From the NCBI RefSeq assembly GCF_013167455.1, contig NZ_CP038328.1: a stretch of 64,000 nt of DNA; one strand, written 5' to 3'. Position numbers and translations under genes: made by a program. The notes beneath the pieces were generated by a model. It was not told the origin of the DNA. It saw only the letters and a program-made list of their open reading frames with translations, and did no database searches. Of this stretch, positions 34,512 through 34,856 are shown piece after piece. Source of the DNA: Escherichia coli O157:H7 (GTDB lineage: Bacteria > Pseudomonadota > Gammaproteobacteria > Enterobacterales > Enterobacteriaceae). How positions within the stretch are numbered: position 1 is the stretch's first letter; the number at the start of each line of letters is the position of its first letter.

Positions 34512-34856
34512 ATGAAGAAAAAATACGAACTGGTTGTTAAAGGGATAAATAATTACCCGGATAAGATTACTGTTACTGTGGCACCGGAAATTGGTGGGTA
34601 TCCGTCACTGTTGTTGCCAGATGTGGCGATTAGTCTTGACCGTACTGAAGGTGCCACGCTGGAGTTTTACGAAGCTGAGGCGAAAAAGCAGGCGAAGCAG
34701 TTTTTCATGGATGTTGCTGCCGGGTTATGTGAAGGGGATGGTCCGTTACCGGAAAAGCGTCCCGTAATTTTAGAGGCGCAGGATGTGTTGATAACCTACA
34801 GAGGAAAACTACCGGGAATAATTACGGGTTCTCTGAAGACTCCACCGCTGGCCTGA
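34512..34856 (+). CDS. Uncharacterised 115-aa soluble protein inserted between holin and endolysin
   Basis: Start 5 nt after the holin stop with the RBS inside the holin 3' end; no TM segment and no motif I recognise. Confidence 0.45.
   Translation: MKKKYELVVKGINNYPDKITVTVAPEIGGYPSLLLPDVAISLDRTEGATLEFYEAEAKKQAKQFFMDVAAGLCEGDGPLPEKRPVILEAQDVLITYRGKLPGIITGSLKTPPLA

Follow-up and report, generated by a model that had tools for sequence, protein, structure and literature searches.

The stretch of Escherichia coli O157:H7 DNA analysed here (64,000 nucleotides of contig NZ_CP038328.1, assembly GCF_013167455.1; "the window" below) includes part of an E. coli O157:H7-type prophage whose lambdoid late lysis cassette occupies positions 34301-36896 on the + strand. 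Our subject is a small gene in this cassette, at 34512-34856, that lies between S, the gene for a phage-21-type pinholin, and R, the gene for a signal-anchor-release (SAR) type endolysin. The gene order, which is that of the RefSeq annotation, is Q, three tRNA genes, a TerB-family gene, a NanS-p esterase gene, and the genes for a class II holin, a YdfR family protein, a lysozyme, an antirepressor-domain protein, Rz and terminase, and the 10 kb around the cassette are 99.9% identical to E. coli chromosomes. The gene between S and R is, with near certainty, YdfR/DUF1327, an accessory gene of lambdoid lysis cassettes. The features discussed below are collected in Table 1.

A late gene at the holin-coupled start site

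The open reading frame (ORF) begins at an ATG at 34512 and ends at a TGA at 34854-34856, which gives a protein of 114 amino acids (aa). A sequence-only reading of this DNA had described it as a 115-aa ORF; the ORF is indeed present, but the additional residue is obtained only if translation starts at the in-frame GTG at 34509. The same reading had recognised no motif in the protein, and on this point it was mistaken, since the protein has a full-length match to the Pfam family DUF1327 (PF07041; i-Evalue 6e-46, model positions 1-92 of 93). It also matches PHROG 406 ("unknown function"; E 3.8e-64, covering 1-113 of 114), is identical to RefSeq WP_000731259.1 ("YdfR family protein", the annotation that 100% DNA matches carry as well) and has a 100% identical counterpart among the ORFs of phage YYZ-2008. 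Gene, family and place in the cassette had in fact all been catalogued before and have been on record since the annotation of the K-12 genome: YdfR of the K-12 prophage Qin (b1555, P76160) belongs to the same family, is encoded in the same place between the holin gene essQ and the lysozyme gene rrrQ, and has the same start 5 nucleotides (nt) after the holin stop. The earlier view of an unusual and unrecognised insert thus gives way to a named family that has the same place in K-12 Qin and is found in 58% of complete E. coli genomes (below).

Other parts of that reading hold up well. The DUF1327 ATG lies 5 nt past the holin stop (TAA 34505-34507), and the ribosome-binding site proposed for it is present within the 3' end of S as the Shine-Dalgarno-like sequence GGGGAGAG, whose GGAG is 9 nt 5' of the ATG. 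The protein was correctly called soluble: it has no transmembrane segment, its maximum Kyte-Doolittle 19-residue mean being 0.89, compared with 1.83 for S and 1.67 for the weakly hydrophobic N-terminal segment of R. It is mildly acidic (pI 5.5). The G+C content of its gene is 47.2% (46% at third codon positions), against 54.6% and 68% for S and 55.4% and 60% for R, which marks it as an insert. The description of a holin-coupled gene of uncharacterised function stands, and the gene is also variably present. We found no promoter-like site on the + strand at 34000-34512 and no terminator-like site after 34856 (in both cases the counts were at the level of shuffled sequences), and expression of the gene would therefore depend on the late transcript alone, with none in the lysogen. 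It is a late gene on the Q-dependent transcript that encodes a small soluble protein, and no second DUF1327 copy is present within the window.

The way in which the gene is inserted is seen most clearly by comparison with Stx2 phage II (Stx, Shiga toxin), which has no DUF1327 gene. Homology between the two runs through the holin gene to window position 34515 and resumes at 34916, so that the insert is about 400 bp long and its edges are the two start regions. In Stx2 phage II the place behind GGGGAGAG, 5 nt past the holin stop, is the start of R, and the junction there reads ...ggggagagTAAgctgATG(R). Because R of Stx2 phage II uses this same GGGGAGAG site, the holin-coupled start has in the window been taken over by DUF1327. 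R of the window has been displaced to a start that is preceded by 50 nt lacking a clear Shine-Dalgarno sequence; RNA structure predicted for this spacer (34840-34930) does not exceed that of shuffled controls (fold z-score 0.15). The two endolysins begin with MNAKIRYG in the window and MSRKLRYG in Stx2 phage II.

A few rare database proteins (P0010, P0068, P0090 and P0091; PF04971 plus PF07041, 173-187 aa, one cluster having 13 members) fuse the pinholin to DUF1327 in frame. These fusions apparently arise from one-nucleotide changes in a GGGG run at the 3' end of the holin gene, and since they are rare and explained in this way we rejected programmed frameshifting from S into DUF1327.

The remaining genes of the cassette are of the expected kinds. 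The pinholin is 98.5% identical to that of phage 434, and the endolysin has an E-x8-D-x5-T triad and a Gly/Ala-rich N-terminal segment. The Ant-like gene between R and Rz, which encodes 189 aa with an antirepressor N-terminal domain, is a second accessory insert of the cassette with a low G+C content like that of the DUF1327 gene, and Stx2 phage II also has an Ant-like gene between R and Rz. Between this gene and Rz lies a very hydrophobic ORF of 48-49 aa (MMGWLMISDKLITLVKSLCVLAGISFSLMLVALFLSMAWMALTSAGLVG; 36277-36426, + strand; "hypothetical protein" in RefSeq), possibly a small membrane protein of the lysis cassette. About 50 nt 5' of the holin start is a strong terminator-like hairpin, past which transcription would presumably continue under Q antitermination; a terminator is annotated in the equivalent place of phage 434. 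Farther 5' the prophage carries, on the same strand, a NanS-p-type SASA esterase gene (32002-33852, as in the RefSeq annotation) and, 3' of Q and the tRNA genes (Ile, Arg, Arg), the TerB-family gene (~30669-30918), which is located where Stx phages carry stx.

Table 1. Coordinates of the lysis cassette features in the window and of convergent ORFs next to DUF1327 genes at other loci
Feature	Position	Strand	Basis or remarks
Terminator-like hairpin and T-run 5' of the holin gene, in the late transcription unit	34219-34255	+	11-bp stem with 7 GC pairs, tail TTTTTGTTTT
S, class II (phage-21-type) pinholin, 68 aa	34301-34507	+	PHROG 9876/20 holin; RefSeq "class II holin family protein"
Shine-Dalgarno-like GGGGAGAG in the S 3' end, serving the DUF1327 start	34497-34504	+	Sequence
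YdfR-family/DUF1327 gene, 114 aa and stop	34512-34856	+	PF07041, PHROG 406, identity to WP_000731259.1 (see text)
Conserved N-domain, aa 1-72, predicted beta-beta-beta-alpha, common to the whole family	34512-34727	+	Alignments, AlphaFold2
Variable C-terminal module, aa 73-114	34728-34853	+	Low confidence/disordered in the model; ends at the deletion junction
Spacer before R, 50 nt, without evident Shine-Dalgarno sequence	34857-34906	+	Sequence
R, SAR-type endolysin (lysozyme), 177 aa	34907-35440	+	PHROG 7 endolysin; RefSeq "lysozyme"
Ant-like antirepressor-domain gene between R and Rz	35711-36280	+	PHROG 524; RefSeq annotation; G+C 46%
Rz i-spanin	36423-36896	+	PHROG 13; embedded Rz1 o-spanin ORF 36649-36834 (ORF list); like the Rz/Rz1 annotation of Stx2 phage II
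Convergent partner ORFs	L003 2744-3040; L091 3733-4020; L092 3733-4020; L094 1989-2228; L097 1988-2260; L008 335-616; L009 693-992; L010 1879-2160	- (all)	

Modular structure, distribution and relatives of the DUF1327 proteins

Alignments divide the protein into a conserved N-terminal unit (residues 1-72) and modular C-terminal pieces. An AlphaFold2 model built from a 32-sequence alignment places strands at residues 5-14, 18-27 and 38-43 and a helix at 50-73, with predicted local distance difference test (pLDDT) values of 77-95 for this block and below 50 for residues 78-113. The structure prediction that the sequence-only reading had proposed as a check thus gave a confident model of the N-domain, but the accompanying fold searches led back to the family itself: Foldseek against AFDB50 matched only DUF1327 members, all from Enterobacterales (Escherichia, Shigella, Salmonella, Hafnia, Yersinia, Rosenbergiella, Providencia and Morganella), and a fold search of BFVD gave nothing at E<=0.001. 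A sequence profile search of the PDB gave nothing below E 0.29, and NCBIfam gave no match.

Three C-terminal pieces are recognised: the 40-residue segment of the window protein (CEGD...PEKRPVILEAQDVLITYRGKLPG...), an alternative short tail in mEp460 and K-12, and a further helical extension of 60-70 residues in forms of 176-183 aa. Compared with phage 2H10, whose protein is of the 183-aa form, the window is missing about 486 bp directly after 34847, so that its 114-aa protein is a deletion derivative of the 176-183-aa forms with its stop at the junction. Another database protein (P0163, 112 aa) joins a coiled-coil segment resembling the extra C-terminal part of the 176-183-aa forms to a middle module of the window type (EKRPIILEAQRVWITYKGKLPGRITGSLKTPP) and has no N-domain; each of the three modules is thus shuffled independently. 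K-12 YdfR fits the same scheme, in that its residues 1-74 are 46% identical to the window N-domain while its C-terminal part is unrelated (...SEKVESYLQHQYSFKIENPANK... in K-12, CEGDGPLPEKRPVILEAQDVLITYRGKLPG... in the window).

Pairwise ratios of nonsynonymous to synonymous change (dN/dS) for codons 1-72 among divergent alleles are 0.15-0.44, which is consistent with purifying selection on the N-domain; the C-terminal module has a value of 0.56, calculated from few changes, and is weakly constrained. We also collected 80 loci with close alleles from IMG/VR (near-identical loci only, a set that serves counts of conservation and not of diversity). None of the 80 has a disrupted ORF; it encodes 114 aa at 78 loci and 176 aa at the other 2. 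The start 5 nt after the holin stop is retained at 77 of 78 loci, and 76 of 78 have the 50-nt spacer. Together the dN/dS values and the intact ORFs show that this is not a chance reading frame.

These results bear on the idea that the insert works mainly in cis, by occupying the holin-coupled start and moving R 400 nt in the 3' direction to a start without a Shine-Dalgarno sequence, so that less endolysin is made relative to holin and the protein itself is of little consequence. The use of the coupled site by R of Stx2 phage II, and the conservation of a 50-nt stretch with no recognisable Shine-Dalgarno sequence in front of R, are what this idea would predict. The apparent purifying selection on the protein is not, nor is the persistence of N-domains away from lysis genes. 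In addition, ydfR of K-12 Qin overlaps rrrQ by 4 nt (ATGA), in contrast to the 50-nt spacer of the window, and the same ATGA overlap with R is found in Tritos, so in these cases coupling to R has been kept. We therefore consider a mainly cis-acting role very unlikely.

The gene is common among phages and prophages of E. coli but by no means universal. In a tblastn search 101 records in a set of 50,697 from phages contained the protein, chiefly those of Stx1a and Stx2c phages, H-19B, BP-4795, phage 86, mEp460 and others; the holin was found in 436 phage records, and the 101 with DUF1327 are among these. Only 2 of the 124 Stx2a phages with the holin have DUF1327, and phage 434 lacks it. DUF1327-like DNA is present in 3,158 of 5,426 complete E. 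coli genomes (58%), at 6,729 places and up to 8 per genome; for the holin the figures are 16,796 places and 5,160 genomes. The DUF1327 gene therefore accompanies about 23-40% of these holins and is common but optional. The order class II holin, DUF1327, 177-aa lysozyme is found in Escherichia in the window, K-12 Qin and eight other phages or prophages. The statement that S and R are normally adjacent in such cassettes is thus correct in part, with S-DUF1327-R as a common alternative layout, and the gene is largely a known and routinely encountered lysis-cassette component, though one whose presence is optional. Matches at E<=0.001 number only 97 among 1.84 billion representative proteins.

Could the protein nevertheless regulate lysis? 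It might act in the cytoplasm, by binding the charged C-terminal tail of the pinholin or the short N-terminal tail of the SAR endolysin, and delay or sharpen triggering in a manner analogous to an antiholin or to the releasin of phage Mu. The conserved spacing behind the holin stop in the E. coli examples (77 of 78 loci) means that it is made in step with S; the rare S-DUF1327 fusions are compatible with the cytoplasmic C-terminus of S; and Mu provides a precedent for accessory proteins that control SAR endolysin release. A Keio ydfR mutant, moreover, scored in a chlorophenol red-beta-D-galactopyranoside (CPRG) screen for envelope integrity (PMC3879167 supplement, cited in PMC13232886). However, ydfR is directly 5' of the lysozyme gene rrrQ, so that polarity of the kan cassette on rrrQ is a plausible cause of this phenotype, and the fusions are few and look like one-nucleotide insertions or deletions in the G-run. 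The known regulators encoded in or beside SAR-endolysin lysis cassettes, as DUF1327 is (the S21-71 type antiholin, T4 RI and Mu gp25 releasin, DUF2730), are all membrane-inserted or membrane-tethered, whereas the DUF1327 protein has no hydrophobic segment or membrane tether and no homology to any of these families, and its PHROG matches are all of "unknown function".

The distribution of the gene also speaks against such a regulator. Of the cassettes whose S and R are near-identical, 60-77% do without it, those of Stx2a phages and 434 among them, and the middle gene does not co-vary with its neighbours. In eight phages and prophages, identity to the window proteins is 78-99% for S and 86-93% for R but only 46-59% for the DUF1327 N-domain, so that the gene diverges much faster than S and R. 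In phage Evi an S that is 99% identical stands next to a DUF1327 gene that is reduced to the 72-aa N-domain and is 54% identical (local alignment, 61 residues). With homologues also located in tail-gene regions (next paragraph), we think a lysis-timing regulator an unlikely explanation of the gene.

The more distant relatives, of 72-76 aa, consist of the N-domain alone and, where their context is available, lie outside lysis cassettes. In the Salmonella phages ES18 (gp24) and vB_SosS_Oslo (gp23) the DUF1327 gene is located between M-like and L-like tail genes, and another N-domain copy on a genome contig adjoins a weak lambda tail-I-like gene; such copies argue against a dedicated lysis function. 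ES18 gp24 and Oslo gp23 resemble the window protein in their N-domain (~72-86 aa, beta3-alpha, with the YE-EA motif) and in their orientation with the late operon, and differ from it in having no C-terminal module and in having a convergent 95-aa partner (gp25, PHROG 10490). Convergent ORFs of 79-99 aa lie directly 3' of DUF1327 in ES18, Oslo, three short metagenome or genome contigs, Evi, and the NC101 and O177:H21 prophages. The one in Evi lies at 2744-3040, and that of NC101 is WP_001168526.1. PHROG assigns these ORFs to four families, all of unknown function (10490, 25324, 21218 and 2411), and they have no Pfam match. The pair is seen in both settings, within lysis cassettes between S and R as well as between tail genes, and DUF1327 and the convergent ORF may therefore form an accessory unit of two genes; no partner accompanies the window copy. 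From these sequence comparisons the family appears to be a mobile accessory module of late operons and not core lysis machinery.

An accessory module of this kind could be moron-type cargo whose benefit lies outside lysis (superinfection exclusion, anti-defence or host fitness), possibly as half of a two-gene unit that has lost its convergent ORF in the window. Variable presence, a foreign base composition, the various sites in late operons and the convergent ORF beside many copies all agree with cargo, and in the ES18 record gp24/gp25 carry the depositors' annotation "possible moron; function unknown". The window copy departs from a moron in that it lacks a promoter and terminator of its own and would be expressed with the late operon only, not in the lysogen. 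Its partner is missing, the partners that do exist belong to four unrelated families, and no phenotype has been reported. The defence or anti-defence role that the sequence-only reading had entertained gained no support: the best PADLOC match was PDC-M35B, with E 0.021 over 31 residues, and two other alleles gave none. On balance we doubt the moron explanation about as much as we doubt a regulator of lysis.

A tentative link to RNase E

RNase E is the only target of a DUF1327 protein that is supported by experiment, through residues 1-72 of K-12 YdfR. In a two-hybrid library screen with RNase G, the paralogue of RNase E, as bait, K-12 YdfR was found three times as identical clones of codons 1-72, and on re-testing this fragment interacted more strongly with RNase E constructs than with RNase G (Göpel et al. 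2026, PMC13232886). Rne 1-598-FLAG co-purified with Strep-YdfR, and the Strep-YdfR eluates contained much DNase-resistant nucleic acid (PMC13232886). In the literature on the YdfR family, on essQ together with ydfR and on lysis cassettes we found no other functional study.

With these findings in mind we tentatively favour the following reading of the window gene, as a possibility and with less than even confidence. Its protein would be made in the cytoplasm at the same time as the holin and in roughly the same amounts. It would probably not be a core component of lysis, as the many phages with near-identical S and R that lack it indicate that the holin-endolysin-spanin pathway does not require it. 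Most likely its N-domain would act on a host target; it might bind the catalytic half of RNase E, or RNA, or both, and this binding would change RNA decay late in infection, the protein serving as an adaptor or modulator in the manner of T4 Srd or RapZ.

The nearest parallels among phage proteins are those that target RNase E. T4 Srd, which binds the N-terminal half of RNase E and stimulates decay, and phiKZ Dip, which blocks the degradosome, are small phage-encoded cytoplasmic proteins like YdfR, and like the K-12 YdfR N-domain Srd binds the N-terminal catalytic half of the enzyme (PMC13232886). The likeness of these proteins to YdfR is one of target, size and cytoplasmic location, and a relationship in sequence or fold was neither looked for nor found here; in addition, Srd is the product of an early gene of a virulent phage, whereas DUF1327 belongs to the late lysis cassette of a temperate one.

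A number of observations weigh against a role in RNA decay. The only two-hybrid signal of full-length YdfR was that with Rne 1-597, its overproduction altered few transcripts and left growth unaffected, and the authors could not exclude a contaminant as the carrier of the RNA (PMC13232886). All of the RNase E data were obtained with overproduced tagged constructs of the K-12 allele, which is 46% identical to that of the window over residues 1-74, the part of the protein reportedly sufficient for binding. No Pfam family besides DUF1327 matches the window protein even at E<=10, so it has no detectable double-stranded RNA-binding domain (dsRBD; dsrm) or other RNA-binding family, and the fold matches are all below a convincing threshold. 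Finally, the placement directly behind the holin gene in E. coli fits a lysis-related role equally well. A more specific version of the RNase E reading is correspondingly less probable, and we put it forward as an outside prospect: the N-domain would be an RNase E- and RNA-binding module with a dsRBD-like beta3-alpha core, coupled to the holin in order to redirect or block the action of the enzyme on late transcripts, or on one specific host RNA, during the last minutes of infection, and the convergent ORF would be its regulator or antagonist.

Whatever its activity, DUF1327 is a holin-coupled gene of most E. coli genomes, with Stx1 and Stx2c prophages among its carriers, and it lies within one of the best-studied of all cassettes. 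If the RNase E and RNA lead is true for the phage alleles, temperate phages would gain a late-stage handle on host RNA decay. If instead the timing of lysis is affected, the release of Shiga toxin would be influenced, because the toxin leaves the cell at lysis.
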